Positions 2,359 to 62,139 of a stretch of DNA of 64,000 bases are shown here, one piece after another. The stretch lies in NCBI GenBank assembly GCA_977030845.1, contig OZ365118.1, positions 15,376,001-15,440,000 of the forward strand. Reading direction: 5' to 3'. The position numbers and the translations under genes are program-made. The notes under the pieces are model-generated. The model ran no database searches. It worked only from the letters and a program-made list of their open reading frames with translations, and was not told where the DNA came from. Source of the stretch: Fimbriosthenelais zetlandica. Lineage: Eukaryota. Within the stretch, counting starts at the first letter, position 1; every line of letters begins with the position of its first letter.

Positions 2359-4946
2359 ACTGCTCTCTTTTCTCTCTCCTCGTTCTTGCCCGCATTGTAT
2401 TTAAACCATTGCTGTTAAAAACAGTACATGTGTCATTCATTTAATACATTGCAATGGCTTTGATAAATTCCATTGTTGCATCCGTACTGATGCAATTTAA
2501 CAAAACTATCTCTCCGGCATAAATTCACCTCATGCATTATCCAGTAGGAAATGAATATTTGCCCAACACGCCATATTGGCATACATGCTGTATTTATAAA
2601 GGAATATTTAGATAAATTAGAATTAGAGAAATCTTTAAGATATATTATATTCAAGAAGGTCTAAGGATAGCAATTTTGATTTTATATATCATATTAATCC
2701 ATCGTTACATTGAATGTTCAATAATCTGGGATCATGAACTTTGAAATGGCCCCAAGTATAGCCATTATAGGCCAATAGTTACAATATAAAATATAACCCT
2801 GCACACATTTTTTTTATGAAACGCACCTTATTATAGCTCATGATGTTTTATCTGTCAGTCAATCAGACGTCTATTAGATGCATCATTCCCTGTGATTATG
2901 ACACAAAACCTGCCATTCATTGGCCGTGTTGGCGGTTAGATAAGATCGATCCTTCCCTCAGGTATAAAGCATTGATGCAAATCGCTACTTGTAAATGCTT
3001 CAATTACGAGGTGGGGCACGCGAATGCATCACTCCCACCACGAAACAAATGGTCTGGCATAATTCAATTTGCAGCCCGTTTGTGCAATTGGCTGCCATGT
3101 CCCGCAGATAGGGATGAAATGGGAATTTGAACCAAATAATTGGAACAAAAAAGGTAATAACTTCGGGGAAAAAAGGTAATAACTCGATGCCTCATGATTT
3201 TGTAATGAACGAATACTATGATGCAGATGCTCTAATTCGTTTACGGCTTTCTTTTAATAAGAGAAGTGCTCTAAAAATTAGTGGCTGTCTTTTATCGTGT
3301 TGATTGGCAGAAAATGACTGACTGACTCAGAGAGAATATCGTAATTTCAAGTAGGCGGGGGGCTGCTGATTGCAATGTTCAAGTTGTGTTCGTTTTCTTC
3401 CCAGATTTGAACCTCCTCCCATGGCATTCGGTGCACCGTACTTCTCCCATAGACTTGGGAACCTCTATTAATTTCAGCTCAGGGTGTTAAAAAGCCCCTC
3501 TAGCTGTAGTGAATAATTTGTTTAGAAACAATAGAGGTGTAATGGATTTATGTTGAATTACCGCAGGCTTTGTTTAGGCAGCATGTGGTCTGGGGGGTGT
3601 GTGGTGGTAGAGAGGGGTACATGATATAAAGCATTAGGGGGGCAGTACTTGTGTTATTCTGAATAGTAAAAGACAGCCGTGGGAAACGATGCAAAAATAA
3701 TGACATAATATTGTGATTGCTCCTCTGCCAACCTACTGTGAAAGCACAGGATGAGCAGAAGCCATCTTTCATAAAACAAACCATTTGGATCAGAGAGACT
3801 TTAACTGAGGGTCCTAATTGCGCATTTCTATTAAAAGATATCTGACATTTTTACCGAGTTGAAACTTGCAAGTCTTTTGGCCTTGGGAATTGGGTCAGCC
3901 ATGACTTTAATGTGTCGAGGATCGAGGCACCTTCCCATACAACATGTACTTTACGGCTTTTCAAATTCATCAGATGGCTTTTGCCATTGGTACTGGCTTT
4001 GTCTGACGTGTGATATATCAGATATGCATTTGATACTACCAGTAGGGGGGCCTGGCTAATAGAGCGGCCAAAAGAGGGCGCTTTAATGGATTCGCCCAAT
4101 GAATTTTCAATACGGTAGAGAATAGAGTCTGTGCATCAAGCATTAGTGCCATAAATTTTTGACACCACCCAGCGTATAGGACACAGGATAGATGCATTAT
4201 TTAATTGCCCGTCAATCATACCTCCCAGTCATTGTAGGCCTCTATTAATCTATATAGATGCTATCCTAGATAAGCTCCGTTAAATAAGGCTTCCACATGC
4301 TGCCAGCAGCAGATATGGATCTTTCAAATGACTTTCGCTTCATACGGAATGCACAGATTGAGGCAGTCCATTCGATACCCCTCTCTTCATTAGCTGGCAT
4401 TCATTACACCTACTGAAACCCCCCACACATCCAACAAGTTTTACCCGAGCTATTTTTAAGAAGTGTGCCTACGAGCAATTCTGGCCTTTCATTGGCCTTA
4501 AATTCAAATATGGATGGCGGTTGGGGTATTGCTCTCGCAGGCGTATAGACGGGCTGCTTATATTGACAGGTTGGCTGGGAGGTAGAAAAGGGAAACGATG
4601 CAGAAGTCAGTCTGATCAAAATACACGCCTCCCTCTAACAATTACCTTCTCCCTCCTCTTCAATTTAGCGGCAGCAAGCCAATATCTAATGTCCCATTCA
4701 TTAGGCAATACTGGGATGCTACAATTGCAATTGATTTTCAATTTGTCCTCCGCACAAAGGAGCTGGAAAATAGTAGGGCCTGGGTGTTGGGGTGTGAAAG
4801 GAGAACTTGTGCCATAATGGGGAAGAGAATGGGAAATGTGGCAATGGATTAGTGATAGGGAGGTGGTGGTGGGGGATCAATTAACTATAGTGGCTGACCG
4901 CATCGGGTAGATCAAATGAGCGGGGGCGGTAATGAAAAGGAAGACC

Positions 4947-4952
4947 ACTCAC
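4947..4952 (-). other. 5' splice donor GTGAGT ending the protocadherin exon
   Basis: Plus strand reads actcac|ctg, i.e. minus strand CAG|GTGAGT, a consensus donor. The translated sequence beyond it loses recognisable features. Confidence 0.8.
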
Positions 4953-7784
4953 CTGTGAGATGACATTAGAGTTGGTGCGACTTATGGCCGGGCTGGGCAG
5001 GGATGTGGGCTTCTCATCAAGGTCACTCGTGTCCAGCTCGAAGCGCAAATGGGTTTTCAGTCCGTCGCCAGCGTCCGACTTGGACGTGGAGATATTACCC
5101 ACTTTTTCGTCGGTCTCAACTCTCCGCATGGTGGGGATATGTTTAGGACTGGGCGACTGGTGCTCCAAGTCCACTCGGCGCATGTATTTATAGCTATCAC
5201 GGTGGTTACGTTTCTTTTTCTTCCGGTGAACCAATATAATAGCAATTATGAGGAGGATTACTAGCACTGCACTGGCCACACCCATGGAAATGACAATGGT
5301 TTGGTTAGGAGCCATCTCCAAACTATTGCCATTTGCTCCGCCTTTCCTGTGAGAGATAATAGACATGGTTTTATTAACTATGATATTGATGTCGGATGAG
5401 GCCTGCCTGGGCGGGTGCCCATTATCAGTGACCCTCAGTAATAGTCGGTATCTACGGCCACCATACAACTCCAGGTTCTGATTGACAGTAAGGGTTCCCT
5501 TCATGGGATCTATAGCAAAAAGATCATCCAGGTTTCCCCGAGAGATGGCATAGTCCAAGCGAGCATTGATGGAATCGTCCCTATCACTGGCGATCATTCG
5601 GGTGATAACGTATCCCACAGGTGCCTGGTAGGACACCTGAACTGTGTTATTAATAGGGCTGGGATACGATATAATGGGGTCATTATCATTGATATCCACC
5701 ACTGAGATGGTCACACTCACTGAGCTAGTTGTAAATGGAAAGCCTTTATTAGACGCCATGACAGTGAGTCGATAGACTGCCTGGTACTCCCTGTCCAGCA
5801 TGCGTCTCGTCGTAATCATCCCTGTGTCTGGGTTGATCTGGAAAGCTCCCCTAGATCCCATGTTTGCCCTTAATGTGTAAGTGACTCTATTGTAGGGGCT
5901 CGAGTCGGGATCCACAGCTTTCACTGAGCCCACTTCTGTGCTGCCATCCGAGTTCTCCTCTATATTGAACTCGTAGGATGGCCGGCGGAACACCGGGGAC
6001 TCATCATTGATGTCCACTATTTTCAAGATAACAGTTGCCGTGGCCGATAACGGGGTCACGCCATTATCCGAGGCGATGACTCTGAATTGGAACTGATGCA
6101 TCTTTTCATAATCCAGGAGCGAGTTGGTACTGATGACCCCGGTTTTGGGGTCAACTTTGACCTGCCCCCTAGCGTCTGGGTGGAGAGAGTATGTGATATC
6201 TGAGTTGCGTCCTTCATCCTGATCTGTAGCATTCACTCGTAGGAGGTGCTCATTGATGCTACCGTTCTCCCTCACGGTCACACCATATACATCCTGGTTA
6301 AATATAGGAGCGTGGTCATTCTCATCTATTAGTTTGACCACGATGCGCTTGGTAGACTGTAAAGGGGGCATCCCATGGTCGTGACATTCCAAAGTCAGAC
6401 CAAAAGTTGCTTGCCTCTCTCTGTCAAAGGACCCACCCACTGTGAATATTGTATATTCATTCTGGTAGATTCTCGAAATATCAAAGTTCCGGTCTTTCAG
6501 GGAACATGTCACCTCGCCGTTTTCACCCTTGTCTGAGTCCTCCACTGAGATATGCGTCACAAATGTACTCGGCTCAGCATTCTCCGGGATCTGTACTTGA
6601 CCTGACGGGGTCAGTGAGTTGACAGTGATTTTGGGCGAGTGGTCGTTAATATCCATGACCTTGACCACGACTCTGGCATGGGTAGATACACTGTCTAGGC
6701 CACCCTGGTCGCTGGCGATAACAATCAAATGGTAGATTTTGTCTTTCTCATAATCCAAAGGACCCTTCAAGAAGATATCACCAGTTTGGTTGTTGATGCC
6801 AAAGAGGCTGCCAAAGCGATCAACAGTATCAGGAGATAGCATATAGGTCACCCGTCCATTGGGACCTCGGTCCTTATCAGTGGCGTGGACCCTGATAATC
6901 ATGGTTCCCACTCTAGCGTTCTCTCTCACTGACACGTCATAGCTCGCGTTATCAAACTTGGGGGGATTATCATTGGCGTCCACTACAGACACCTCTATAG
7001 TAAGCACGCCTGATTTAGATGGACTGCCCCCGTCCCTCGCTACGATTCGCATCATGTACATCGCCTTATCTTCACGATCGAGACGGTCTCGTAAAACCAG
7101 CTTCAGATCCCATGATCCATCTGATGTGTTTTGGGCGCGGAGCTCGAACTTTCGAGTTTGCGATCGAAAGTCATAGCTCTGGATGGTATTGCGGCCGCTA
7201 TCTGGATCCCGAGCTGCGGGAATGACAAAACTAACTCCAGGCATAACGCTCTCAGACACTGCCATTGACATTCTGGGCTTGGGGAAAGTAGGCGCGTTAT
7301 CGTTAATGTCTTCAACAAAAACCTTAACTGAAACCACTTCGAGATAGCTGACAGGCACTGGACTGATGGCCACATCAAACTGCAGCACACAAACTAGCAT
7401 TTGAGCACATATTTCCTCCCGATCAATGATCCTTTTGGTCCTTAATTCCCCCGTGGATGGGTCAATAGTAAAATAAGCCCTGTTCGGTTCATCCTTTTTC
7501 AGAAAGTCAAACTTGATATCCCCGTACACATCCGCCCCATACCTCTCGGCTATTTTCGCATCACTACCAATTTGCCCCACCATATTAGTGGCCGTGTTTT
7601 CCTCGGGCAGGGTGTATTCCAGTTTTATCCTTTCCTGTCGATCAGCCCTGGCTGCTGCTGGTCCCAGTGATAGGGTAAGTGCAACCAGGAGGGTCAATAC
7701 ATTGGTAATTGTCAACATGTTGTTATGACGCCTCCGCGGCCTGGGCTTAGCCACGGCTGCGTCCACTGGGATGCGACCATTCAT
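4953..7784 (-). CDS. Protocadherin, large coding exon (944 codons): signal peptide, 7 cadherin (EC) repeats, TM helix, start of cytoplasmic domain; the gene continues in downstream exon(s) not identified here
   Basis: Seven repeats carry the PEN/xEN, DxD, LDRE/LDYE and DxNDxxP motifs (ending DINDNAP, DANDNPP, DINDHSP, DENDHAP, DINDESP, DINDNDP, then a terminal repeat). EC1 has the protocadherin-type DREEIC-x4-C pair. There is a hydrophobic leader (LTLLVALTLSLG) and a TM segment (IVISMGVASAVLVILLIIAIILV) followed by HRKKKKR. In-frame ATGs lie at 7784 and 7718. The track ORF runs to 4881, but a CAG|GTGAGT donor after ...SNVISQ ends the exon at 4953 in phase 0. Confidence 0.95.
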
Positions 7785-9557
7785 CTCACAAGCTGTTATT
7801 GCCCGCTGGTCGGCCGGTCCCTACCACTGATAGGCGGGCTCCATATCGGTGATAACAGCGCCTCTACAGTAGCATTTCCCCTGGCCACTGATGATGCGTG
7901 AATGGACACGATTGTTGTACTTGCTCAGTCCTATCACCATACACAGGACTCCCTAGATCAACACACATGGTGCTCACTGAGCTGCTCCTGCTCCTCAGGC
8001 CCCATGCTCTGGTCACTCCTCCCTCTCTCTATCATTGAGATTATCACAGGTCAGTGGATTAGAGAGCAGCTCATCATTTGTATCGCTGTGTGGATTATCC
8101 GCTCACTTAATCAGGTCCAGCTAGAGACACGTGGCGCGGTCATATCTGTCAAAAACATAACATGGTTGGAATTAGTGACCAATAGACACTCTATGAGGCA
8201 TGCAGATGGTGGGCATTGATAGGATGTGGGGATTAAGCATCTGGTCAGCGGGGTGTATCAATAAATTAGAAGGGTTGTCACCAGGGACTTTGTCATGCTA
8301 ATGTTCAAAATAAATCTCTCACTGTTTAAATCTATCAGGTTTTCCTCTATTGAATGATGTATAGAACTGAGAATAGGTCTCACTTTTGTCCCTTTGTTTA
8401 TTGTAAAATACATTTATAAATTTTAGTATGGAAGATTGGTACAATGCCGAATACTGGCCCTAGTGGGCCGTAATCTTTGAAATTATATTGAAACCTTTTA
8501 TAGCATGAGATATTGTGTTCATTTTGAGACGTTATTCTATTTTTATTTCAGATGTTTCCTGTTCTAGCTGATCCAAATATAGGCAACATGAAGGTAAGAT
8601 TGAACTTTGATAACATCAATTGAAATATAAGCTTTTTTTACTTTTACTCTTGGAAAGGTAATGCATAATGAAAGATAATACCATGAAAGGGAATGAGTAA
8701 TGAAATAATCTGGAGAATAAGTGAAATAAAAGGAATAAGTCATGAAAGGGAATAGATGAATAGATAAGAATCTATCATCTACTCTTTCAATCTCTTGCAG
8801 TATAATTATAAATTCAAGAGCCTCCAGTTAAAAGTTCCATCTCTTTTATAATAGGCTATTGGATACCATCACTGAAATTGTATATGATCATATATATTGG
8901 CAATTTTCATCTGAGATAGCAGTTGTAGTGGTTTCCAGTGTCCCTTTATAAAAGAAAGGTGAGCATTTCCGCCCTTTACGTTGCGACTTGAAGCAATAGA
9001 TTAGTACCCCCTAACCCGACTAAACAAAACCATTGAACTGGCGACCATAAATCATATTAATAATCGAGCTCTGAAAAAGGAGCTAAGCTAGAGGATATCA
9101 AAAAGTCCCTTCTGAGGGAATTCAGCCCACATTATCATAACTCGGAGCTGTCACTAAAAAGACCTTTTCATTCACTTCACTGCTTGAATAAATCACCAGG
9201 GCATTGTAGTTTGCCATCAAAGGCCATCAAAGAAGCTTAAGTGGTCCGCGACTCAGAAGGCTTATTTTGATGCAAATTTGACAAATACAAGGCTGGACGC
9301 TTTAAAAGCGGCCCCTCGCTAATCTGTTGCTTTGGGGAATACTGGAAACAAAAGCAATCTGTCGTGAAATTAGTGGCTTTATCGGCGGAGGCGTAAGAGT
9401 TGTGAATAGTTGGAGGAGTCCCACTGAGGACTCTACGATAAGTTCGCTACACTGCGCCGTCTATTGGCCATCAAGGGACGACTCACACTGAGTTTTCTTG
9501 GGGGCTGTTTTTTTTAGATGGCGCCTCCTGCAGACGCCGAACGCAAGCTGTTGGCTT

Positions 9558-20243: not shown

Positions 20244-20709
20244 GCTTTCTCTGTCCCCCCTATACCATCTCTGTTCCTATACCAGTTTATATTCGTCTCC
20301 ATCTCTCTCTCACTCTAATTCCAACTGATATTGTAGTAAATTCGCTGCATGCAGCTCCTTTACCGTGGTTTTACACCAGGCAAGACCATGAGTTTCCCCT
20401 AGAGCCTTTGGCTACACCCTGCCGAGCGGTGTCGTTGCAACGCTGGATGTGTTTTAGTTAATCTCGTTTTTAAGGACAATGTGTTTACGAATAGATCTAC
20501 TTTCAGTTAAGGACCTTATTTATGGAACTCATTTAGATGATGTGTTAAATACTCATTAAAGGACATTCCAGGAACACTGAGACATAGTCTCCTCATCTTC
20601 AGGCTGGACAATAGACTCCTGCTATATGCGGACTAAATCCGGGAATATTCCGGAAAGGTTATCTGCGCCATCTGCGGTGCTTTATGGAACTTCGGTTCCA
20701 AACGATTAT

Positions 20710-20742
20710 TATAAATGACAAGTTTGTGTGTTACTTTTCAGA
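20710..20742 (+). promoter_or_regulatory. Predicted LTR core promoter (TATA box + Inr, TSS ~20740)
   Basis: TATAAA at 20710 and TTCAG with A at 20740, matching canonical TATA-to-Inr spacing. Confidence 0.5.
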
Positions 20743-21422
20743 GGTGAAACTTAGAGTCATAATTATGTATAATGTACTTGTATATTATGCCGTGTGTGAA
20801 TTATGTCATTTTCGACTTGTATCTGTGATATTGTCCGTTAGACGGTCTGAATGTCTGAGAACACCTCAGCCATTCATGTAGGACTCCGTATGGGTCCCGC
20901 CTCTCACCAACACAAGGGGGCCTTCACAGGAGTGTTGGTCCGGGACTAGCCACGACCGGTTAGTCTGAGTCTGCTGCTTCAATCGTTCTCGGCCAGTTGG
21001 CCTCGAGTCCGGATCTTTGCAAGATCCTCGAATGAACCATGCTGGGTTCACGGGCCTAAGTGGAGACGTGTAGTCTTCCCGGGTATGCTACCCGCCTCGC
21101 ATTCCCACGCAACTACACCAGACCTGGGTCTGGTACCGAGCAAGTCCGTGTAGGACAAACTACCCGGGGCATCTTCCAAGGCCGGTTCCCGGCCGGGATT
21201 GCTATCCCGGATCTTCCACGTTTACGGGTCATTTACGGAGCGCTCGTCAAATCCGGAACTCCGGATTCCGGTTTGACTGTGCTCAGGGTTTGGCTGGGTA
21301 CCCATCCAGTTGACCTTGTGAGCGCCTGTAGCTTCCCTTATTGTACGATCACACGCGTTCTGGGTGCGCATTCATCACTGTCTATTGAATACCTGTTTGT
21401 TCTCCTGTATGGATCTACACTA

Positions 21423-21428
21423 AATAAA
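21423..21428 (+). terminator. LTR polyadenylation signal AATAAA (3' copy at 31116-31121)
   Basis: AATAAA followed by GT/T-rich sequence, ~120 nt from the LTR end in both copies. Confidence 0.7.
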
Positions 21429-21547
21429 TGAGCAACACTGCATAAGTTTTAAACTGTATCTGATTGCCTTTTGGTTCCTTCAATTATTGCCGAATTGTAT
21501 TTGGGTATTAGTTTTTAGTCTCTTTACTTTAGCCGGTTCATTACAAT

Positions 21548-21565
21548 TGGTGCCGTGACCAGGAT
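21548..21565 (+). other. Primer-binding site complementary to tRNA-His 3' end
   Basis: TGGTGCCGTGACCAGGAT starts two bases after the LTR end. It is complementary to ...ATCCTGGTCACGGCACCA, the invertebrate tRNA-His(GUG) 3' end as recalled. Confidence 0.85.
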
Positions 21566-21709
21566 ACCTTCTGTGCAGAAGGAGAAGCAGATGGTATCGT
21601 GAGAAAACTACGTGAACGAACAGTGGTATAGACTGTCCAAATACCTTGGTATTCGTGGAAGGGCGATTTCCGGATTGTTCCGGATAGTTTGTCGTGTAGA
21701 CAAAAGAAG

Positions 21710-23833
21710 ATGGAGGAAGACGCGGACCATGGCGTTGAGGCCGAAGTGGTCCTTAGTGAAAATGCAAGACGCGCGCTGCGCCGCGCTAGTAATCGAGCAG
21801 CAGATGAAGTCGGCATAGCCAAGGCACGATACGTTGCTCGAAAGCAAGAAATACTAGAAGCGGTGCAAGGTCATACGCCTCGGCATCCTCCCTCTGGAGG
21901 AAGGGCCGCCCCGGGTCATTTCCGGGATGACACAGACGTGTTCCTTGCGGAAGTTGAGCAGTTCGAAGAAAGCCTGGAGGCTGAACAAATAAGATACGGA
22001 GAAGAAGAAGACGACTCGGACGGGGAAGGGAGGTCGCACTACAGCATAGCGGATGATGAGGCTGCTTCCTTTGATGGGAGGATAGCCCCCGACCAGACCC
22101 CGGTGGGTGGCGATCTAGTGACCGTCCGCCCGCGAAGGTTGGAAGGTACGCTCCGCGAAGTGCCCCCCGGTTCCGGATGGGACGACCGAAGAGTGGTGTC
22201 AAGTACCCGTACGGGTGAGTTGGGTGACGAAGATCAGACGGATTCCGAGGAACGTGATGCAGTTCCCCGGAGGTACCGCGAAGGTCCGGGGGTGCGGTTT
22301 GCACCCAGTCCTGCGGCTGCGGGACCCCGAAGAATCGATCACCCAACTCCTGTCGTCCACGGGGAGGTGAGTCCTGTGGGCTCGCCATACCCGCGGCGGG
22401 AAAGACGCCCCAGTGGTCCCATACGTCCGGCAGCAACTCCGAGAAGGGATATCCCGGATCCGAGACCCGATGGTCACGTTCCGGGAATATGCCCGGAAGA
22501 GAGAAGAGCCTCTGCGCAGGCGCGAGATAGGCCGTTTACGAGTCCGGTGGTAATGGCCCCGGATTTGGCCCCGCGGTTGCTGACGGAGGATGCTATCTCC
22601 CGAAGTCCTTCGGAAGTTCCATCTCCAGGCATGTCCGGCGGACATGTAACCCCTTCTGTCTACACCACGGGCGTATCTCGGGAAGAAGTTGTATCGCCCC
22701 CGGCAGCCCCGGGATCGGTCTGTCGAACGGCGGGGATATCGGCGTTCGATTTGGACTTATCTCCGGAGCGGCCGCGGGGGAAAGGTAAATCGGCTTTGGA
22801 TTTGTCTCCCTGCGAAACGGGAGAGCAGGAACGAAGAGAAAGAGAAAGACAAGACCAGCCCCGGGGCCCGCGGGCTCTCCGGGAGTTACGGAGGGCAGGT
22901 GCAAATTCCGCAGGTGCGGAACGAGGATTGCCCCCGCGGCCACCCCCTTTTCCTGTGTGGGACGAATCCAAAGAGACGTGGGAAGATTACGAGTTGCGGA
23001 TTAATAGCTACTTAGCCAGGGGCACCCTGAGCGATGCAGAATTGAAAGACTACTTGACCGGCGGTCTGGGACGCCATCCCCAGATCGTCGCGGCTTTGGA
23101 CTTTTCCAAACCAGTAGAAGAGTTGTTGGAGTTATGTCGAACTTACTTCAGCGACCTGACGGAGCTGGATTTGCGCTTGCAGTTAGAAGCCTGTCGGCAG
23201 ACGAAAGACCAGTCCGTGAAACAGTTTGGGAGGGAATTTGCTGCTAAGGTGGATCGTGTCCACCGTCCCATGGATGAGAAGACTCGGGACCAAATGATCC
23301 ATCAGTTCACGATGGGTCTCCTTGACCGGAAGGTCGCGGATTATGTCCGCATGGCGGAACCGAGATCTATCTGGTCGGCTGTAACCTTGGCTTGTAAGGC
23401 GGAGGCATCGCGGAAAGCTTGGCAGTATAGGCAGGCTAAGGCGGCTGCGTACGCTCTTGCCCTGGAAACTGCCGAGCCATGGGACAATATGGGCGACTAC
23501 GGCGAAGAGGCGGGAGCAACGTTGGCGGCTGTTGACGTGGCGAAACGACCTCGACCGGACCGTCCTAAACCTAAGACATCTGGCGGACACGATAAATCGG
23601 CTGCCGCGCCCCGTCCGGCCGGACGCGGGCGTGGAGGTGCAAAGTCCAAACGCCGGACACCAGGGTGCTGGTGTTGTGGGGATCCCGGGCATTTCATGGC
23701 GGATTGCCCATCCCGGACCTCCATACCAAAAGAGATGATCGCTATGTTGCGAGAACAGATGGCAGGGGTTTTCCAGGAGGCTAGGGGAGAGAAGCCGGAA
23801 AACGCCCCGGGCTCCCTAACAGAAGCGGTTTAG
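21710..23833 (+). CDS. gag: Gag polyprotein, 707 aa: long acidic/Pro-Arg-rich N-terminal extension, capsid domain, CCHC zinc knuckle
   Basis: First ATG at 21710 in strong context (aagATGG); the track start 21689 is a TTG. MHR-like RQTKDQSVKQFGREF; CWCCGDPGHFMADC (Cx2Cx4Hx4C) at 23666-23707; TAG at 23831-23833. Confidence 0.92.
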   Translation: MEEDADHGVEAEVVLSENARRALRRASNRAADEVGIAKARYVARKQEILEAVQGHTPRHPPSGGRAAPGHFRDDTDVFLAEVEQFEESLEAEQIRYGEEEDDSDGEGRSHYSIADDEAASFDGRIAPDQTPVGGDLVTVRPRRLEGTLREVPPGSGWDDRRVVSSTRTGELGDEDQTDSEERDAVPRRYREGPGVRFAPSPAAAGPRRIDHPTPVVHGEVSPVGSPYPRRERRPSGPIRPAATPRRDIPDPRPDGHVPGICPEERRASAQARDRPFTSPVVMAPDLAPRLLTEDAISRSPSEVPSPGMSGGHVTPSVYTTGVSREEVVSPPAAPGSVCRTAGISAFDLDLSPERPRGKGKSALDLSPCETGEQERRERERQDQPRGPRALRELRRAGANSAGAERGLPPRPPPFPVWDESKETWEDYELRINSYLARGTLSDAELKDYLTGGLGRHPQIVAALDFSKPVEELLELCRTYFSDLTELDLRLQLEACRQTKDQSVKQFGREFAAKVDRVHRPMDEKTRDQMIHQFTMGLLDRKVADYVRMAEPRSIWSAVTLACKAEASRKAWQYRQAKAAAYALALETAEPWDNMGDYGEEAGATLAAVDVAKRPRPDRPKPKTSGGHDKSAAAPRPAGRGRGGAKSKRRTPGCWCCGDPGHFMADCPSRTSIPKEMIAMLREQMAGVFQEARGEKPENAPGSLTEAV

Positions 23834-26800
23834 GAGAGCCGGAGCCGGGCCGGGGGTTGGCGGGATTACCCGTAAACCCGGGCCCGGGAACGCTTCAACA
23901 ACCATCGGCAGCACGAAGTAACTCGGCGTCGGTAGTAGGGACTTCCGCGGAGGCGCGGGCGCCCGCTCAAGTTCAGAAGACCTCTGTACGGCCGCGGGCG
24001 GAGCCCGAAGTTGTGTCTATCACGGACGGTGGTACCCGGAACGCGCCCGCGAGGCGTCATGAACCTCGCGTGGGGAATGAAGTGATCACTGGAGAGGCGC
24101 CCCGACTGGTTTCCGTAACGTCCGAGTACGGAGCGGAACCGGTGCGGATAGCGATAATAGACCCAACCGACGTAAGCCGACATACTTTACGACTCCCTAG
24201 CCAGAAGGCTATGGTGAAGGACCGATGGTATGTTACCGTAGAAGTTAACCAGCAGGGAGCAGAGTTGTTATTGGACACAGGGGCTACTACTTCGCTTGTG
24301 TCTAAAGAATTCTACGACTCCTTGCGCCGCCCACCCCCTGTGCAGCCAACGCACACGGAGGTTATGGTCGCGGATGGGGACACGCTGCGGACGGAAGGCA
24401 TTGGCTGCTTTCCTTTTCGGATCGGTGGACACGTATTTGTAATGCCATGTTTGGTGGTTTCCGGACTGATCGACGGAGAAGAGGGCATTCTGGGAGCTGA
24501 TTTTTATCACGTCCACCGATGCTGCTTGGACTGGTCGGGACGACTTACACTCGGGAATGGGGAGGTGACAGTGGCGTGTCATGCCCGGAGGGCTGCGGCG
24601 AAGGCCCGGCTTTCCGAGGACGTGACCCTGGGCGCCTACCGAGCTGTGCTTTGTAAGGTTACGATCCCGCGGGATAACCCGCGCGGGTTGTTGTACATCC
24701 CGGACCATGAGAATTTGGCGGAATTGACAGTGGGGAGCCTCAGCACGTATGTAGCCGGAGAAGATAAAGAACCCCGTGTCATTCTGTCTAACCCCACGCC
24801 ATTGCCGATCCGACTGCAGCGAGAGACGCCGGTCGGAGATCTTCACGTGGTGGAGGTTACGGATGAGGACTTGATGTGCCCGGATTTGGTAGTACCCCCC
24901 GCAGATGAATGTCCGCTGGAGAAGGCGGTCAAGGAATCGCACATCAAGAATATCGGTCAGAAAGAACGGGCACTGGCACTATTACGAGAGTATTCCGGGT
25001 GTTTCGCGATGCCCGGAGACGAGTTGGGACAGACCGATCGGGTGAAGCATCGGATTACCTTAAAGAATCCGGACCCGATTCGGCAGCCTTACAGACGGCT
25101 TCCGGTTTCCCGGAGGGAAATATGTGAGGCGGAAATACAGAAGATGTTGGACAAAGGAGTGATCGAACCCAGTGAGAGCTCGTGGAGTTCCCCCATTGTC
25201 ATGGTCAAGAAGAAGGACGGATCGATGCGGTTCTGCGTAGACTATAGACGGCTGAACCAGGCAACCCAGACGGACAGTTACCCCCTGCCGCGAATTGACG
25301 AAGCGCTTGATGCGTTAGGCGGGAACCAGTGGTTCTGCTCGTTGGACTTGGAAAGCGGTTACTGGCAGATAGCGATGGAAGAAGAAAGTAAAGATAAGAC
25401 TGCGTTCATCAGCAGTCTTGGGTTATTTCAGTTCAAAGTTATGAGCTTTGGCCTGTGTAACGCGCCTGCAACGTTCGAGAGAATGATGGAGACGATGTTG
25501 TCGGGCTTAAGATGGAAGAAGTGTCTCGTTTACATCGATGATGTGATCGTGTACGGAAAGACGTTTGGGGATCTTCTGGATAATCTCCGGGAAGTTCTCG
25601 AGCGGGTCAGAAGCTATGGATTGAAGTTGAAACCTAAAAAATGTAAAATGTTCCGCCGTCGGGTGGAATATCTAGGCCGGATAGTTTCCGGAGCCGGGAT
25701 TGAGCCGGATCCCGCAAAGATACGGGCAGTGCAGTATTGGCCTCGCCCGGAGACCACGAAGGAAGTGAGGAGCTTCCTCGGGTTCACATCATACTACCGA
25801 GAATTCGTCCCACAGTTTGCAACTGTGGCGGGTCCGCTCCAGGAGTCGGTGGTGCTGGCAATGAAGAAGAGTGGAGGTCGTGCCTCCCGAGTCGAATGGA
25901 CTCCGGAGTGCGAGGTGGCCTTCCGCGAATTGAAGAGTTTGCTGGTCCGGGCCCCGGTTTTGGGTTACGCGAATTCTACGGGGACGTTCATTCTCGACAC
26001 AGACGCAAGCAACATCGGCATGGCCGGCGTGTTGTCCCAGATGCAGGACGGCCATGAACGGGTGCTGTGTTATGCAAGTAATTCCTTAAGTGGAAGCCAA
26101 AGAAACTACTGCACGACGAAGAAAGAGCTTCTTGCGATAGTGACCTATCTGCGGAAGTTCCGCCACTACTTGTTGGGGTGTGAAGATTTCTTCGTTCGTA
26201 CCGACCACGCTTCGCTGAAGTGGTTGGTGAACTTTAAAGAACCTCAAGATTTGTTGGCACGATGGCTGACGACCATACAAGAATACGGGATTAGTTCGGG
26301 CTTAATCCGGCATCGGGCAGGCGCCAAACATCAGAACGCGGATGCCCTGTCGAGGTTGGTAAAGAAGAAATGCCCGCGCCCGGGTTGTCAGCAATGTCAG
26401 CAGGCAGTAGGACCACCAGTCGTAGCCTCCCTAGCTGTGCTAGAGGATGAGGGGCGTATGCCGGGGGCGCAGAAGAACGACCCGGACATTTCCCGGATCA
26501 TCCGGCTGAAGCAGTCGGGTGCGGATGTTCCTTCGCGTGAGAAGTTGCGCGGAGAATCCGCGGAATATCAGACCCTTGCGGGAATGTATGACGATCTGGA
26601 AGTTGGAGAGGACGGTATTCTGCGTGCTAAGTGGCACAGAAAGGCCACCGGTTATACAAGATGGAGGATAGTCGTTCCCTACGCGCTCCGTGAGGAGATC
26701 TTCCGGGCCCTTCACGGGTCCCGGATTTGCGGACATTTCGGGAACTTCAAGTCGGTGTGGAAAATCAAACTGCGGTTTTACTGGCCCGGATTGAAGAGGG

Positions 26801-28254
26801 ACGTGGAACGATGGGTGAAAGCATGCCCGGAGTGTGCTATGCGGAAGTCTCGTGCTGGTGGGGGTCTAGCCCCCTTGAAGAAAGAGATTCACGGCACATC
26901 CTTTTCGCGGATCTCGTTGGATATCATCGGTCCGTTTTCCACAACCCCGCGTGGGAAGACTTGTGTTCTTGTCATTACGGACTTCTTCACGAAGTGGGTT
27001 GAGGCTATCCCGCTGCCAGACCATAAGGCAGAGACCGTGGCGCACGCCCTATTCTACGAATGGATTCTGAAGTACGGCCCACCTGTTTCCTTGCAGACGG
27101 ACGGTGCTCCAGAGTTCCGGGGTCATCTACTCACCGAACTATGTGAATTAATGGGCATGGAAAAGTTGTTGACGTTGCCTTACCGGCCCGTAAGTAATGG
27201 CCAGGTGGAACGTTTTAACAGAGTGCTCGTAGAGCAGCTTTCCTGCATCATTAACTATGACCAGAACCATTGGGACTTGTTGGTGCCATGTATTGCGAGC
27301 GCGTACCGAGGTACGGTTCACGCCAGTACAATGGTTACTCCGAATAGTGCACTATTCGGCTCGGAAGTAATCACTCCGGCGGATCTCCTTTACGGGGTTT
27401 ACCCGGGAATGTTGGATTTTCCGTGTCGGACGGTGTACGTTGAAGAAGTGAAGAAGCAGTTACGGAATGGCCATCGGTTCATCCGTGAACAGCTCGGGAA
27501 GTCCGCCGTGCATCAGAAACGATACTTCGATGCCCGGTCTCGCCCGCGGGAATACCCGCCGGGGACGGTGGTGTACAAGTATGACAACGTAAGGGCCAAG
27601 CACAAATATGATAGAAAATGGGACGGCCCATTCGTGGTCGTTCGAAATTACGGAGGGACAACTTACGAACTTCGCTCCGAGAGCGGTCTCCTACGATGTC
27701 ATGTGGACTACTTGAAGCCAGCGTTCGGGAAGGACGGGGCCGTGCAGACTGTGAATCTGCATGCAGCGCCGGAATATAGAGCTCAACAAGCGAAGGGGGT
27801 TGAATATGTTACGACGGATTTGATGGGTCGAACTATTCGCGGGAAAGACGCGCCGGAGCCAGCGGAACCCCGTGAGAGGGTGGTTCGCCGGCGTGGAAGG
27901 AAGAAGCGGCGCTCTGTCCCCCCGCAGAGCAGGGCGAGAACGAAGCTCCGCCCGAATCCGGACCCGGATTTCGTGGTTCCCACATCTGTTACGGATGTCC
28001 GGAAACCCGCGAACCGTGTCACCAGGGCTACGACGGCCCGTAAAAAGGCCGTGGAACGAGATGTAGGAGGTACAGATGTGCCTCGCGTTGAAGTTGAGCC
28101 GCGGACGAGAGTCGCGGGAAAACGCAGCATCCGGGCCCCGGAGAGGTTTGGGAATCTCGCCCCGGAACGTGAGAAGGGAAGGAAGAAACGTGTGACGAAA
28201 ACGCCTATACGACCGTTGCACGGTAAATATAAACAAACACAACGAGAAGTCTAA
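23785..28254 (+). CDS. pol: Pol polyprotein (aspartic protease, RT, RNase H, DDE integrase with GPY/F motif), -1 frame relative to gag
   Basis: LLDTGA at ~24274; YIDD 25531-25542; DTDAS 25996-26010; HHCC (HGSRICGH...CPEC); catalytic D 26920, D 27100, E 27208 (D-x35-E); WDGPF. The frame opens after TAG at 23782-23784, overlaps the gag end and has no ATG before the protease region. No chromodomain is evident. Confidence 0.97.
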   Translation, partial: GREAGKRPGLPNRSGLGEPEPGRGLAGLPVNPGPGTLQQPSAARSNSASVVGTSAEARAPAQVQKTSVRPRAEPEVVSITDGGTRNAPARRHEPRVGNEVITGEAPRLVSVTSEYGAEPVRIAIIDPTDVSRHTLRLPSQKAMVKDRWYVTVEVNQQGAELLLDTGATTSLVSKEFYDSLRRPPPVQPTHTEVMVADGDTLRTEGIGCFPFRIGGHVFVMPCLVVSGLIDGEEGILGADFYHVHRCCLDWSGRLTLGNGEVTVACHARRAAAKARLSEDVTLGAYRAVLCKVTIPRDNPRGLLYIPDHENLAELTVGSLSTYVAGEDKEPRVILSNPTPLPIRLQRETPVGDLHVVEVTDEDLMCPDLVVPPADECPLEKAVKESHIKNIGQKERALALLREYSGCFAMPGDELGQTDRVKHRITLKNPDPIRQPYRRLPVSRREICEAEIQKMLDKGVIEPSESSWSSPIVMVKKKDGSMRFCVDYRRLNQATQTDSYPLPRIDEALDALGGNQWFCSLDLESGYWQIAMEEESKDKTAFISSLGLFQFKVMSFGLCNAPATFERMMETMLSGLRWKKCLVYIDDVIVYGKTFGDLLDNLREVLERVRSYGLKLKPKKCKMFRRRVEYLGRIVSGAGIEPDPAKIRAVQYWPRPETTKEVRSFLGFTSYYREFVPQFATVAGPLQESVVLAMKKSGGRASRVEWTPECEVAFRELKSLLVRAPVLGYANSTGTFILDTDASNIGMAGVLSQMQDGHERVLCYASNSLSGSQRNYCTTKKELLAIVTYLRKFRHYLLGCEDFFVRTDHASLKWLVNFKEPQDLLARWLTTIQEYGISSGLIRHRAGAKHQNADALSRLVKKKCPRPGCQQCQQAVGPPVVASLAVLEDEGRMPGAQKNDPDISRIIRLKQSGADVPSREKLRGESAEYQTLAGMYDDLEVGEDGILRAKWHRKATGYTRWRIVVPYALREEIFRALHGSRICGHFGNFKSVWKIKLRFYWPGLKRDVERWVKACPECAMRKSRAGGGLAPLKKEIHGTSFSRISLDIIGPFSTTPRGKTCVLVITDFFTKWVEAIPLPDHKAETVAHALFYEWILKYGPPVSLQTDGAPEFRGHLLTELCELMGMEKLLTLPYRPVSNGQVERFNRVLVEQLSCIINYDQNHWDLLVPCIASAYRGTVHASTMVTPNSALFGSEVITPADLLYGVYPGMLDFPCRTVYVEEVKKQLRNGHRFIREQLGKSAVHQKRYFDARSRPREYPPGTVVYKYDNVRAKHKYDRKWDGPFVVVRNYGGTTYELRSESGLLRCHVDYLKPAFGKDGAVQTVNLHAAPEYRAQQAKGVEYVTTDLMGRTIRGKDAPEPAEPRERVVRRRGRKKRRSVPPQSRARTKLRPNPDPDFVVPTSVTDVRKPANRVTRATTARKKAVERDVGGTDVPRVEVEPRTRVAGKRSIRAPERFGNLAPEREKGRKKRVTKTPIRPLHGKYKQTQREV
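23797..23840 (+). promoter_or_regulatory. Predicted -1 programmed ribosomal frameshift signal (G_GAA_AAC + stem-loop)
   Basis: Heptamer 23797-23803 is in gag phase inside the 49-nt gag/pol overlap, followed by a 6-nt spacer and a 10-bp stem with one bulge (GGCTC-CCTAA / TTAGG-A-GAGCC, 23810-23840). Confidence 0.65.
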
Positions 28255-28590
28255 CCCTCGGACTCCCAGTAGTCTTAAGTGCGGGTCCGGGAGTTGGCTT
28301 TATCCCAGTGGATTCCGTGCAGGCTACATCCCGTGTAGGGGTATTTTCCGAGTCAAGTCGGTGGTGACACGTCGTGAAGACGATAGCCCGTGGATACCGC
28401 GGGTAATCAGTCCCTAAGCCGGGTTTTCGAAGAAGGAAGTTCCCTCCACGTTGTTCCGGAATATGAGCGAGGTGCTGTGCTGTATTCCGTCACCTTTGCG
28501 GGAAAAGAGTCCTGCCGGCCGGGGAGTGCTAGGATCGCTGGTTCGGGTTCTGGCCGTGTCTCCGGGGACGTTCCGAGGCGCTCGGGAGGC

Positions 28591-28776
28591 TGACGTCAGT
28601 CTCTGACCTAGATTAGGCTCCTTCGCTTCCTCTGGCCTCGACCTACATTCCATCTCATCAATATTCATGGCGCATGAATCACGTGAAAAGTAGTCCCTGC
28701 AGAAGCAAGACGGGGATTGGATGAATGAAGTCACGTGCCCGAAAGTAGATCGGCTTGCGCCATCAGCCCTATAAGA
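28591..28776 (+). promoter_or_regulatory. Candidate internal promoter upstream of ORF3
   Basis: TGACGTCA 28591-28598, TCACGTGA 28679-28686, ATTGG 28716-28720, GTCACGTG 28730-28737, TATAAGA 28770-28776. Confidence 0.5.
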
Positions 28777-29092
28777 GGGCCTGCATCCCCAGTCTCGTTC
28801 CCCTTTGTCATCAGTGGTTCCTCGGATGGAGGAACCTGGGCTACGCTGAAGGCGGGAAGAGTTCCCGCGCTCGCGCAGCGTAAACAAGTCACGAGGTTGG
28901 CTTGGTCATCTAAGACTCCGCTGCTAGATTGCATCTAGTAAGAGCAAATCTCGACACAACTTACCCCCACTACAGCAGTAGAAGAGAGTAACTTGAATTC
29001 TCGTCGTTCTGTGATATCGTGGAAGGAAGGAAGTTTGCGAAGTTCCTGATTGTGACATCTCACACGTTACGGATTCTTCTCCGGATTCCGTC

Positions 29093-30661
29093 ATGGCTGA
29101 ACGCCATAGTGAACCCCGTTCCTTTGAACCACCACAGGGCGTCGGTGACTATAGGTCCCATAGAAGTAAGTCTAGGGATTCCTCTCATTCCTCACGATCC
29201 TCCGGATCGCGAAAGAAGGATGATAAGTCTCGGAGGAAGTACGAAAGGCGTGCAAGGTCTCGCTCGCTCTCGCCTCCGGGCAAAGATGGAGAAGTTGCCA
29301 GATTCTCCCCGCTTAAGGCCGTGAGGACGCCTGGAATACGTCGTCTTCGCTACGAGGATGTGGGACATCTGCGGCCTAAGGACTTCATCGAGGTTGTGCC
29401 CCGAACGGCGCGCCCCGCGAACAGTGATCCCCGTGAAACTGATCCGGATTTAGACGCGTTCATAGAGGGAATGACTTACGAAGGTCTCTTCCACGAGATC
29501 CAAGCAACCACAGGTCCCACGTTCCGTGGGCTCGCCCTCCCTACCGTGGAAGTGTCTCATCTAGAGCGTCTCCAGCGGGTCGAAAAGATTTGGGCCCCTC
29601 CGGAAAGGTGCCCTTTCCTCATTTGCCGGTCTAGGACCCAGAGTAAGGGCATCATGTGTGTTCTGCGCAACCGTGAATGGTTCTACCGACATCTGGTTGA
29701 GATACACACTCCTGTTACCGTGGTATGGTATTGTCCGATTCGGCAGTGCCTACACCGCACCGATCGTCCGGATGAGATGCAGGACCATATTTCGTCCGGA
29801 CACAAACAAAGTAAGAAGGATGCTTTGTCCAGGGTTAGAAGAGACGGCAGGTGGGAGTATGTGATAAATCCCTATTTCGCCAGCACTCTCTGGATGGATG
29901 ACGCGGACTACTTCGGCTATTTGAAGTCGCGATCATATCCCGACCACCGTCAACCCGGATCGCCTCCAGAACAGCCGGCCAAACGCCGTCATGAAGACAG
30001 GTCTCCGGAATCCATCCGGGCAATCCCCGCTGCTGCGGGAGCACCTCCTGCCATTGTGGCTACTGCCCCTGAGGAAGTCCCCTCTACTTCCGTGGCGCCT
30101 ACCCCTGAGGGAGTCCCCTCTACTTCAGTTGGACATCTGGAAGACGTGACGAATGACAGTCAGTTAGCGGAACCTCCCGCCGAGTCGAGTGTTCGATCCC
30201 CGGAAGTGCCGGGCACCTCCTCTATGGCTGGTTCCCCCTCCGCTTGTTCAGTCAGTGGGACTGATGATGATGAAAGTATGGACGGTTACATAACGGATTC
30301 GGTGAATTCGATCGCGGCAACCGCGCGCGAGGTCTTACGATCTCAGGTCCGTGCTTGCCGTGAACAATCGCGTCGTGAGGACGCTGGAGCCATCTCCCGA
30401 TTACACGCGGAGAATGTTCAACTCCGGAAAGACTATGAGCAAGCGCTCATTCAACTGAGGGAGGTCACCCGTTCCCGGGAAACGCTTCGGCAGCAAGCCG
30501 CCGGATTCGAGGAAATAATGAAAGTAGCCCGTAGAGTGGATGTCCCTACTAAACCAGCCACTCGAATGGGCCCGGACTCCGTATGGGTCCCGCCTCTCAC
30601 CAACACAAGGGGGCCTTCACAGGAGTGTTGGTCCGGGACTAGCCACGACCGGTTAGTCTGA
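29093..30661 (+). CDS. ORF3, 522 aa accessory protein of unknown function (RS-rich region, two C2H2 zinc fingers, NLS-like motif, Pro/Ser/acidic linker, coiled coil); not an envelope protein
   Basis: Uninterrupted ORF with good Kozak context (gtcATGG). C-x4-C-x21-H-x4-H at 29609-29707 and C-x4-C-x12-H-x4-H at 29732-29803; PAKRRH ~29975-29992; 36-nt tandem duplication (30066-30090 / 30102-30126); heptad-like region ~30320-30530. No signal peptide or TM segment. The last ~29 codons lie within the 3' LTR. Confidence 0.85.
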   Translation: MAERHSEPRSFEPPQGVGDYRSHRSKSRDSSHSSRSSGSRKKDDKSRRKYERRARSRSLSPPGKDGEVARFSPLKAVRTPGIRRLRYEDVGHLRPKDFIEVVPRTARPANSDPRETDPDLDAFIEGMTYEGLFHEIQATTGPTFRGLALPTVEVSHLERLQRVEKIWAPPERCPFLICRSRTQSKGIMCVLRNREWFYRHLVEIHTPVTVVWYCPIRQCLHRTDRPDEMQDHISSGHKQSKKDALSRVRRDGRWEYVINPYFASTLWMDDADYFGYLKSRSYPDHRQPGSPPEQPAKRRHEDRSPESIRAIPAAAGAPPAIVATAPEEVPSTSVAPTPEGVPSTSVGHLEDVTNDSQLAEPPAESSVRSPEVPGTSSMAGSPSACSVSGTDDDESMDGYITDSVNSIAATAREVLRSQVRACREQSRREDAGAISRLHAENVQLRKDYEQALIQLREVTRSRETLRQQAAGFEEIMKVARRVDVPTKPATRMGPDSVWVPPLTNTRGPSQECWSGTSHDRLV

Positions 30662-31238
30662 GTCTGCTGCTTCAATCGTTCTCGGCCAGTTGGCCTCGAG
30701 TCCGGATCTTTGCAAGATCCTCGAATGAACCATGCTGGGTTCACGGGCCTAAGTGGAGACGTGTAGTCTTCCCGGGTATGCTACCCGCCTCGCATTCCCA
30801 CGCAACTACACCAGACCTGGGTCTGGTACCGAGCAAGTCCGTGTAGGACAAACTACCCGGGGCATCTTCCAAGGCCGGTTCCCGGCCGGGATTGCTATCC
30901 CGGATCTTCCACGTTTACGGGTCATTTACGGAGCGCTCGTCAAATCCGGAACTCCGGATTCCGGTTTGACTGTGCTCAGGGTTTGGCTGGGTACCCATCC
31001 AGTTGACCTTGTGAGCGCCTGTAGCTTCCCTTATTGTACGATCACACGCGTTCTGGGTGCGCATTCATCACTGTCTATTGAATACCTGTTTGTTCTCCTG
31101 TATGGATCTACACTAAATAAATGAGCAACACTGCATAAGTTTTAAACTGTATCTGATTGCCTTTTGGTTCCTTCAATTATTGCCGAATTGTATTTGGGTA
31201 TTAGTTTTTAGTCTCTTTACTTTAGCCGGTTCATTACA
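30574..31238 (+). repeat. 3' LTR, 5'-truncated (665 nt)
   Basis: No mismatch found against 20881-21545 (offset 9693). Ends TTACA|ATAT. It does not begin with TG and has no upstream polypurine tract. Confidence 0.92.
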
Positions 31239-34081
31239 ATATATTCACATGAAATTGTGTAGAAATGAAAATGACTTGAGTGCATAAAAAAATCCACCAG
31301 ACGGCAGACACTTTGAACTAAATTAAAGACTTCACAAGCATCATTATTTCAATAATGAAGACGAAGCAGCACCCAATATTAGACGAATCTCTCAATTAAA
31401 ATCGCTTGAATCTTTAAGAAAGGTTGAGGTCCAAATTTTCAAATTTAAGAATTTTCATTTCCAACTCACTTTTAATTCCCTCTGAGTAGATGACAGACAG
31501 ATGGACTGATCAAAATTTCTCCAAAAAACTCCAAATTGAATTTCCCAAGATTGGCTTAAGTTTATGAGAATGGATTTTCCCAATTATTTGTTAAGCATGA
31601 CGTCACGTCTTGTGAACGAAAGAGGAAATAGGGGAATAGGCTTTGTCCCTTTTAATAATAAAGGGACCATTTTAAGTGATCAACGGCCGTTTCTTATCGC
31701 TGTTTGATTTGGGCAAAGGTTAAGAAAGCCTCTATTGTGAGAGGTTTGTCTAAAGATAGCCCTTACCCTCGATGGTGGTACTCAAGAGGGCTTGTCTCAC
31801 AATTAGGATGTACTTCTTTATAAGTCCCCATGGACTTACCATTGGTTCTAGCTTTGTAGTGAAACACGCCCAAAATGTAAGACCCTCCAAGGGTGGGGGG
31901 CTGAAGGACATAGCTATACATTTGTTGCATTGTTCGTCAGTGTCTCAAGTCTATTGTTGGCGACAGTTAATAGCTACTATTATATACTCCAAACTGTCGA
32001 CATCTTAATTGGGCAGGGGAAAGATGAATAACATTTCAATTAATTGTACAGATAAGATTTTAAGTGAATTAAGAATGATCCTGCTTCAGAAGCAAGGTAC
32101 CGATAATATAGCTAGGTCTAAATAAACAAGTTTATATATCACTAATGTATAATTGTAAAGTTCTACGATACAGCTGTGAGATTGCAATGGTTTATCACCT
32201 ATAAAATCATTTAGAAACTTAAAGCCATTTTTGGTCAAATCACCAAGCCAATAATAACCCCTGATGAGGCCCATTCCGTCGCGAAAATAAACAGCCTTAT
32301 ATAAGCTTATAGATTTCTGGAAGATGCATAGAACTGTAGATTCATCCTTCGATGGAACCCAATACCCAGTCAAGCTTATTATAAGCCCTCGCCTATATAC
32401 CAGTGCTAAAAAACCTCCAGTTTATCAGCTTCCCTGCGTCTCATAAATGCTTTAGCATAAAGCTTTAATAGACGACTGGAAGCAGTTGAGCCAGGACCAT
32501 GGACCACCCCGGCTAATGTGCCCCGATGTGCTCTTCCTTCCATAACCCTGCCTACCTATATACTCTATGTCAATAGCATTTTCATAGTCCCTCACAATGG
32601 TTGGGAAATAGCCTGCACCACTCCTCGGTGGCCACGATTCAAAGAAGGGGACCTGGATATTGGCGATAAAGCAGTCGCAAGGAAATTGCTATGTCTTTGC
32701 CTTTTATGTGGCCTCCGCCCCTCCCGACCGACGAAGCATCTTTTAATACGCTGCCATATAGACTAGGTAATAGTTACCTACAAGAAGGCAGGTGTAGTAA
32801 CATAGCTATACCTTATAAAAAAGACAAGCAAGAACTCTTAATTCCCTCCTTGAGCTTAATCACTTAAAATTCTATTATAGTACATTATAAATATAGATAA
32901 ATTGTCAAAGATATACCATTGTGTAGCTCCCCAAAGGACCAATACCTCACATGGTTATTTTTTCCCTTTAAAGCGGGGGTGGGTTAAAAATAGGTGGGAA
33001 CCATAATGCATTTATGTAAGAAGAAAGAAATGAATTGATTTCCCAGCGCATATGTTAGACGACGAGGGAGGGGGAGATGGAGAGATGGTTTGTTTCTATA
33101 ACAGGTATGGATTGGGGAAGGGTATAAGAAGCACTAATGCTATCATTCAAATGAATCGGCTGGCAGAGCTGGCATTTTACGCGGCAATGCTTTCACATAT
33201 GAGCCATAGTTGATAGCGTTTAAAGCAAACACACCCCACCAGTGATACATCATGGCGGCAGACAGCTTCCCTGCGTGCTGCATTTCAACAACATTAAGAG
33301 GCGGAAAACATTCAAGCTACTGCCTCTCCAAATTCCTATCCTTCCAAGTGAAAAGAAGGTGGTGGAGGAATGGAATAAGAAGAAGAACTGGTCGCCAGTG
33401 GCAACAGAACAATATTGTTCTAGTTATCATATCGCCGGAGCCAAAGGACAAAAATTCCTTAAGCTCGCATGACCAAAAGCTGTATTTCATTTGGCACCTT
33501 TTTTAGGATCCGTTAGCAGGTTGCTAAATCAGGGAGGCGAAGAGGAGATGGCGAAATTGCTCATTACGAGCTGAGACTAGGCAGGAATAATACTTCAAGG
33601 CCCTTTCTCATTGTTGAACATTACCCAGTGGGGGTGTAGGGGGGTCCAGGAACCCACTAGTACCCCCCTTTTCATGATTAATGATAGCACCATTGTCCTC
33701 TGCGTGATCACGACTTTCTCTATCAAGGTGGCAACTTCTTGAAGTCTGGCTTTACCCGAGGAAGAAGAATGCTTTACATGCGAAGAGAGGGAAATGCTTG
33801 TAAGCAATCCAATTAAATGTTTGTCTTTTGTAAGACTTGCTATCGTCTGTGGTGGTGTAATAAGCATCATTAAAGCTAGTAGGGAGGGGGTGATATGTTC
33901 TTCCTCCTTAAAGCAGTCTCCCTCGTTAAAGCCAGGGTTGTCATGAACGAGGATCAAGCCTTCTGCGGTCAGTGTGGGTGTGTGCGTGTGATTTTTAAGG
34001 TGCGAAGAAAAAGAAGGGGTGGGGTTAATTAACAAGGGAACTGGGCGAAGGAAGGGAGTGTGAGAAGGGGCTTCTGGGAGA

Positions 34082-61300: not shown

Positions 61301-61949
61301 TGCACATATTGCTTTCAATATGGTCCATATATTATTTCTTATTACATTTGCAACATACCTAGGATGTATGGTACATTATCTATTGGTAACTCCCATATTA
61401 TGTGCCCATACTCTATGTGCATTTTTTCATTTTTCACACTTGGAGAACACATTGTTCTTCCATCCATGTATCACACGCTTAAATACCCAAATCACTTTCA
61501 TTGTTCAGTTTCCTGACCAACACTGGTAAATTAACATACAATTGCTTAATAGTTAATAGTAGTATAATAGTAGAGAAAAAGAAAGAACATAATATGTTCT
61601 TTACATATTATGAGAACAGCAATCTCTCAGAAGTTGAGAATGTCCACATTGATCTGAGCGTTTTGTTGTATTCTATCATGAGCGACATTACAACCAATGG
61701 CACACATTGGTAGCAAATAACGTATGCGTGTCGCGTGCACGTAGTCAGCTTAGGACCAGGCAGTAATCCCACGTGTGGTATCCACTAGAATATTGGCGGA
61801 ATAATTGCTATTAGGTGAAGGTCATGAAAGAGTGAGCAGCTCCTAACGGCAGTGGCAGACATAGCTCACTAACTGCTCACTGCTCACTGATGGCAGCTGT
61901 ACACGCCACAACATAGAGAAATGGTAGATGAGGACGGCTCCCAATGTCC

Positions 61950-62119
61950 CCACACAACAATACACAAACAATGGTGGAGGCCTCCAAACATAACCACACA
62001 ACAATACACAAACAATGGTGGAGGCCTCCAAACATAACCACACAACAATACACAAACAATGGTGGAGGCCTCCAAACATAACCACACAACAATACACAAA
62101 CAATGGTGGAGGCCTCCAA
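61950..62119. repeat. 44-bp minisatellite, ~3.9 identical copies
   Basis: Unit CCACACAACAATACACAAACAATGGTGGAGGCCTCCAAACATAA starts at 61950, 61994, 62038 and 62082 (partial). Confidence 0.95.
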
Positions 62120-62139
62120 CTATACTAATTCTTCTCACG

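Follow-up and report, generated by a model that had tools for sequence, protein, structure and literature searches.

The question raised by this locus is how a young LTR retrotransposon came to have a complete 5′ LTR and a 3′ LTR that lacks its beginning, together with the polypurine tract that should precede it. The element, of the Gypsy type, spans positions 20332–31238 of the window (the whole 64,000-nt stretch of DNA analyzed here) and lies between two copies of the target-site duplication ATAT (20328–20331 and 31239–31242); 4-nt duplications are also found in its sister copies. All other features of the element described below are on the plus strand. The 5′ LTR (20332–21545) comprises 1,214 nt with TG...CA termini and is followed by a primer-binding site (21548–21565), 18 nt complementary to the 3′ end of the host tRNA-His. 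The tRNA-complementary pattern has 65 genomic matches, and two of the three loci scanned were called tRNA-His(GTG). An open gag ORF (21710–23833), with a visible Cys-His knuckle and no Pfam match, is overlapped by an open pol ORF in a different frame (23785–28254), whose Pfam matches (residues 150–240, 474–632, 705–834, and 964–1135) follow the order protease-RT-RNase H-integrase. ORF3 (29093–30661) runs into the shortened 3′ LTR (30574–31238), which consists of 665 nt equal to 20881–21545 and keeps AATAAA (31116) as well as the CA end. The order of the pol domains, the TG...CA termini, the short target duplication, and the tRNA primer site are those of Gypsy elements, whereas the purine tract and complete 3′ LTR also typical of them are absent from this copy and present in its family. 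Judged by its sequence, the focal copy is a deleted derivative of a family with a normal purine tract and 3′ LTR. Elsewhere in the window, an ORF of 979 codons that resembles protocadherins and contains seven cadherin repeats occupies 4881–7820 on the minus strand, identifying the host as an animal, and a 44-nt tandem repeat in five copies (61888–62151) adjoins low-complexity sequence.

The left end of the element, placed by the earlier note at 20332, is borne out; it follows one ATAT, and the right end at 31238 precedes the other. In all 20 sister 3′ ends examined, the LTR opens with the same TGTAGTAA, as it does at 61 junctions between purine tract and LTR across the genome, where a short G-run comes before the LTR. 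A left end at 20877, considered as an alternative, is ruled out, the sisters beginning at the equivalent of 20332. The other structural claims of that note hold as well: the 3′ LTR starts at the base matching 20881, the shared 665 nt (20881–21545 and 30574–31238) contain no mismatch, both junction sequences were quoted correctly, and no purine run of at least 10 nt is present from 29221 to the 3′ LTR. The identity of the two repeats extends over 667 nt, with two flanking bases that match by chance. The 549 nt that the 3′ LTR lacks (20332–20880 in the 5′ LTR) appear to be U3.

Alignment with the sisters defines what has been lost. The junction lies at 30574–30576, in a 3-nt microhomology, GGA, and the missing segment amounts to ~1,498 nt, of which ~949 (947–953) are internal, comprising the end of ORF3 and the purine tract, and 549 belong to the LTR. 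In 18 of 20 sister 3′ ends, 1,496–1,502 nt absent from the focal copy are in place, and the remaining two have deletions of their own. Recurrence of the junction in independent insertions, raised earlier as a possible sign of splicing, was not found, the only genomic match being the focal copy itself. A partial search for other U3-less copies looked for R motifs without the usual preceding LTR base; apart from the focal copy, it returned a single solo LTR with a substitution there. Of truncations that leave the exact R motif in place, this search detects about three in four.

The explanation put forward first in the earlier note was that the copy derives from a spliced RNA without a purine tract, in which a donor in ORF3 had been joined to the AG at 20880–20881 of the 3′ LTR. 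In one register, the point at which the LTR resumes does follow an AG, and splicing-type excision is known elsewhere in the LTR of this family, as described below. No GT or GC donor, however, is found at the break in the 52 sister ends that could be aligned (53 examined). After ATGGGCCC, the sequence continues as GGATCC in 20 of 20 sister 3′ ends; in the wider set of 53 ends, 43 read GGATCC and nine AGATCA, and one could not be aligned, so that the excised piece would have been GA..AG rather than GT..AG. The four registers of the junction (GG..TA, GA..AG, AT..GG, and TC..GA) include no canonical splice pair on either strand, and the nearest sister, which matches the focal copy at every one of the last 473 nt ahead of the break, has no donor either. 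Pyrimidines make up 12 of the 20 positions before the AG, compared with 16 of 20 at the candidate LTR intron, and the junction is not recurrent. In four diverged copies a GT is located just upstream of the break position, where the focal copy reads GCCC. The splice reading is refuted by these alignments, with practically no probability left to it; a G|G overlap with an upstream AG can imitate a splice junction. Of the earlier model, the half that invoked splicing falls; the other half, in which a co-packaged RNA comes to the rescue, is still a rival explanation and needs no splicing.

The frame of ORF3 does stay open for 28 LTR-derived codons past the join, as had been described, but the other two frames are open for 22 and 26 codons, and since random entry into the LTR gives at least 28 open codons in 33% of cases, the in-frame fusion is no more than expected by chance. 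A functional ORF3–LTR fusion was rejected, all three frames being open to similar length. In the sisters, ORF3 continues for 97 codons from the Met at 30567, as seen in 37 of 39, and is kept open across the family. By this comparison, ORF3 of the focal copy is shortened by ~94 codons, not extended. No Pfam domain matches ORF3, and the ORF is not recognizably env; its Atlas matches, all below 0.9, include several C2H2 clusters and provide a lead only. Two Cys/His finger-like motifs were spotted in it by eye, and a candidate splice acceptor is located at 28975, ~120 nt upstream of ORF3.

Whether such a loss is exceptional depends on the family, which is young, high in copy number (132 genomic matches to the R motif), and 97–99% identical. 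A census of deletions of at least 25 nt covered 51 copies with both LTRs; it left out the focal copy, the spliced sister L073/L037 described below, three unscorable copies, one of a near-identical pair, and five copies whose 5′ LTR was not recovered whole. For about half of these copies, the scoring relied on the LTR spacing and a 3′ piece, or on the spacing alone. Twenty of the 51 copies bear 33 deletions. Private deletions are common, with no mapped internal deletion shared by two copies, and a diverged subfamily can be recognized by a 25-nt LTR indel. At 29 deletion junctions, the median microhomology is 2 nt. Some sister junctions hold short insertions; templated insertions, a scar of polymerase theta, were not clearly seen at four of them. 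The number of deletions per copy is 0.38 (24 copies), 0.56 (16 copies), and 1.36 (11 copies) at 0, 1, and at least 2 LTR mismatches, respectively, an age trend with p = 0.006 by permutation that is weaker by rank (Spearman p = 0.067). A latent-age model fits best with zero deletions at birth and allows up to ~0.4 per copy. When deletions of the observed sizes are placed at random, 1.4 are expected across the purine tract, with one seen, and 1.4 across the primer site, with two seen (L051 and L141). A copy like the focal one is thus expected by chance.

In both L051 (equivalent of 21223 to 22294) and L141 (equivalent of 20525 to 23437), the deletion is a mirror image of the focal one, taking away the last part of the 5′ LTR together with the primer site and some of gag. 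Other rearrangements were also observed in the family. L086, L032, and L132 have internal tandem duplications of 2,093 nt (across the purine tract and the LTR start), 1,440 nt, and 1,694 nt, respectively, the last being repeated at three junctions. In a copy of the diverged subfamily (L092:2040-3300, oriented), an LTR without its first 25 nt lies inside ORF3, ~27 nt from the position of the focal break, and L097 appears to be nested within an older LTR of the same family. L040/L121 and L041/L120 (both in G000:C15) have identical LTRs and are located ~150 kb apart in opposite orientation; their different target duplications identify them as sibling insertions, not a segmental duplicate.

The position of the break within the LTR matters for the explanation, as it is close to the likely border between U3 and R. 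This border probably falls between nt 556 and 557 of the LTR (20887–20888), as judged from sequence variation among the family LTRs, with errors of strand transfer (PMC5399748) taken as the basis. At nt 556 (20887), all four bases occur, each in at least two of 64 haplotypes, making it the column of highest entropy within the most conserved block of the LTR; four alleles are likewise found at nt 447, where two are singletons. Among 31 non-independent pairs that are near-identical over nt 750–1214, many U3 sites differ, with nt 556 differing in 19 pairs and nt 614 or 618 in six. A DPE-like motif lies 28 nt after nt 557. On the other side, the homoplasy at nt 556 is not exceptional (7–8 steps, retention index ~0.8), and an r2 scan of the family LTRs for a recombination break gave no sharp border. 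A transcription start behind the TATAAA near 20711 is disfavored because nt 350–450 are the most variable part of the LTR. The break is 4–7 nt upstream of the border thus placed; random deletions spanning the purine tract would end in LTR nt 549–557 in 0.7% of cases and in nt 540–572 in 2.4%.

The U3 region (equivalent of 20332–20887) is shuffled among copies that share R-U5 and the end of ORF3 (for example, L029/L030, L026/L034, and L044/L103), a pattern suggesting that strand transfer between unlike RNAs is frequent. The focal copy is distinguished by three changes that both of its LTRs share and that are found in none of 94 other LTRs. In both LTRs, three rare or private changes fall within 16 nt at the presumed start of R (20903–20918 and 30596–30611), in a block that is near-invariant in other copies. 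The 5′ promoter, described earlier as intact, may not be so: two bases of the DPE-like motif differ from those of nearly all sisters in both LTRs, and the activity of this promoter is uncertain.

A different kind of LTR asymmetry is seen in the sister L073/L037 (G000:C10, ~2,899,000–2,911,500, minus strand). Its 5′ LTR alone shows an exact GT..AG excision of 168–169 nt that takes in the poly(A) signal, pyrimidines filling 16 of the 20 positions ahead of the AG; its 3′ LTR and target duplication are intact. The corresponding candidate intron in R/U5 of the focal copy (21364–21532), spanning AATAAA at 21423, is retained. The three LTR mismatches of L073/L037 are grouped within the 80 nt preceding the excision and represent common family alleles (10, 11, and 22 of ~58 haplotypes); nearly all LTR mismatches in other copies are private. 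The primer site of this sister is a variant seen in one of 35. The excision is likely a patch from the spliced RNA of another copy, introduced either by reverse transcription of two RNAs or by cDNA conversion. It is a single case, and since some GT..AG register among ~30 junctions is not rare by chance, the argument is carried by the foreign alleles and the pyrimidine tract.

The asymmetry of the focal copy might, alternatively, have been present at birth. Following the first strand transfer, synthesis would have proceeded 4–7 nt into U3, fallen off, and been primed again at the GGA of ORF3, skipping U3 and the purine tract; plus-strand strong-stop DNA of a co-packaged RNA would have provided the full 5′ LTR, and integrase would have inserted the product normally. 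The architecture is of this type, with an intact 5′ LTR, a deletion running from upstream into U3/R, and a normal right end; the 4-nt duplication and the two att ends show nothing abnormal, pairing continues imperfectly past GGA, and the proximity of the break to the U3/R border has the chance of 0.7–2.4% given above. Ty3 releases repeated plus-strand strong-stop DNAs (PMC5371799), the same structure occurs in HIV-1 proviruses with the same mechanism proposed (PMC9278108), and L073/L037 provides an LTR pair that appears to come from two templates within the family itself. However, two minus strands should often differ in R-U5, and here 0 of 665 positions differ, including the three private changes; two templates, if there were two, would have to be RNAs of one parent. 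The border that lends this origin much of its appeal is itself placed by variation at a site of unremarkable homoplasy, deletions in the family track age, and there is no excess of 3′ over 5′ cases (one versus two), unlike in HIV-1 (24 versus two; PMC9278108). A birth in reverse transcription is, on balance, unlikely. The wider proposal, that the focal copy is the fossil of a failed first strand transfer and that, together with L073/L037, it reveals a family that builds LTRs from two RNAs and splices the poly(A) signal out of the 5′ LTR, is if anything more doubtful. If true, the origin in reverse transcription would give the two-RNA rescue proposed for HIV-1 a natural counterpart in an animal LTR retrotransposon, and would be a caution for dating by LTR identity. 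An assembly error, with the 1.5 kb present in the animal and absent from the contig, is very improbable: a high-copy family at 97–99% identity is hard to assemble, but collapses join long stretches of homology whereas this join uses 3 nt, the flanks and target duplication are coherent, and the 79-contig assembly resolves dozens of sisters individually.

The best reading, at a probability of roughly 65%, is a microhomology deletion after insertion, an option that the earlier note had listed second. The copy would have been inserted with two full LTRs, the chromosome would later have broken within it, and microhomology-mediated repair at GGA would have removed ~1,498 nt, taking the end of ORF3 and the purine tract along with nt 1–549 of the 3′ LTR. 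The comparisons show how large the deletion is, where it ends, that it is joined at a microhomology, that it is unique, and that no splice donor is present; we infer the timing after insertion and a repair pathway of the polymerase-theta-type end-joining kind. A unique junction at 3 nt of microhomology, against a family median of 2 nt, is what such a deletion would leave, and ordinary deletions abound in the family and become more numerous with LTR age, which lends the timing indirect support. The three private changes in both LTRs fit one strong-stop DNA, even though unlike RNAs often appear to be combined. Counted against deletion after insertion are the 4–7 nt between break and border, the very young age of the copy (no mismatch in 665 nt), the weaker rank test, the up to ~0.4 deletions per copy that may be present at birth, the lack of clear templated insertions at four sister junctions, the two-template sister, and the same architecture in HIV-1 being ascribed to reverse transcription (PMC9278108).

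As a deletion, the event has little import: the focal copy is genuine but unremarkable, a degenerate member of a family with dozens of decaying copies. It retains the primer site, R, U5, and the poly(A) signal, and its RNA, if transcribed, is predicted to be able to supply Gag and Pol; with neither purine tract nor U3 end, that RNA could not complete an integrable cDNA alone. The term self-inactivating, applied to it earlier, is overstated: without the purine tract and the left U3 end, the RNA would be a dead end on its own, unlike that of a self-inactivating vector. The asymmetry of L073/L037 is of more interest. For the mechanics of strand transfer, the family offers a good natural data set, in which the copies are young, U3 is shuffled, and one LTR is both spliced and two-template.

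Among known systems, the closest are Ty3/Gypsy elements (Metaviridae) with an extra 3′ ORF, which share gag and a pol in the order protease-RT-RNase H-integrase, TG...CA LTRs, a tRNA-His primer site, and a 4-nt duplication; the focal copy differs in having no purine tract or U3 at its 3′ end, and in an ORF3 without a Pfam match. Self-inactivating (SIN) retroviral vectors lack U3 in the 3′ LTR and have a complete 5′ LTR; their design retains the purine tract as well as the att end of U3, which lets a single round be completed. The focal copy resembles them in its 3′ loss of U3 and complete 5′ LTR, whereas its purine tract and U3 att end were both lost inside the deletion. No report of asymmetric or U3-less LTRs in LTR retrotransposons was found among titles and abstract openings, which is no proof of absence. 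The HIV-1 proviruses with asymmetric LTRs described by Joseph et al. (2022, PMC9278108) number 24 of 88, with a strong 3′ bias that is ascribed to reverse transcription; in contrast, the family described here has one such case and two mirror 5′ cases, is in the germline, and has deletions that grow with age. Deletions by microhomology-mediated, polymerase theta end joining (PMC7165422) are likewise non-recurrent and marked by short microhomology, as at the focal junction, and the insertions at some sister junctions extend this likeness.
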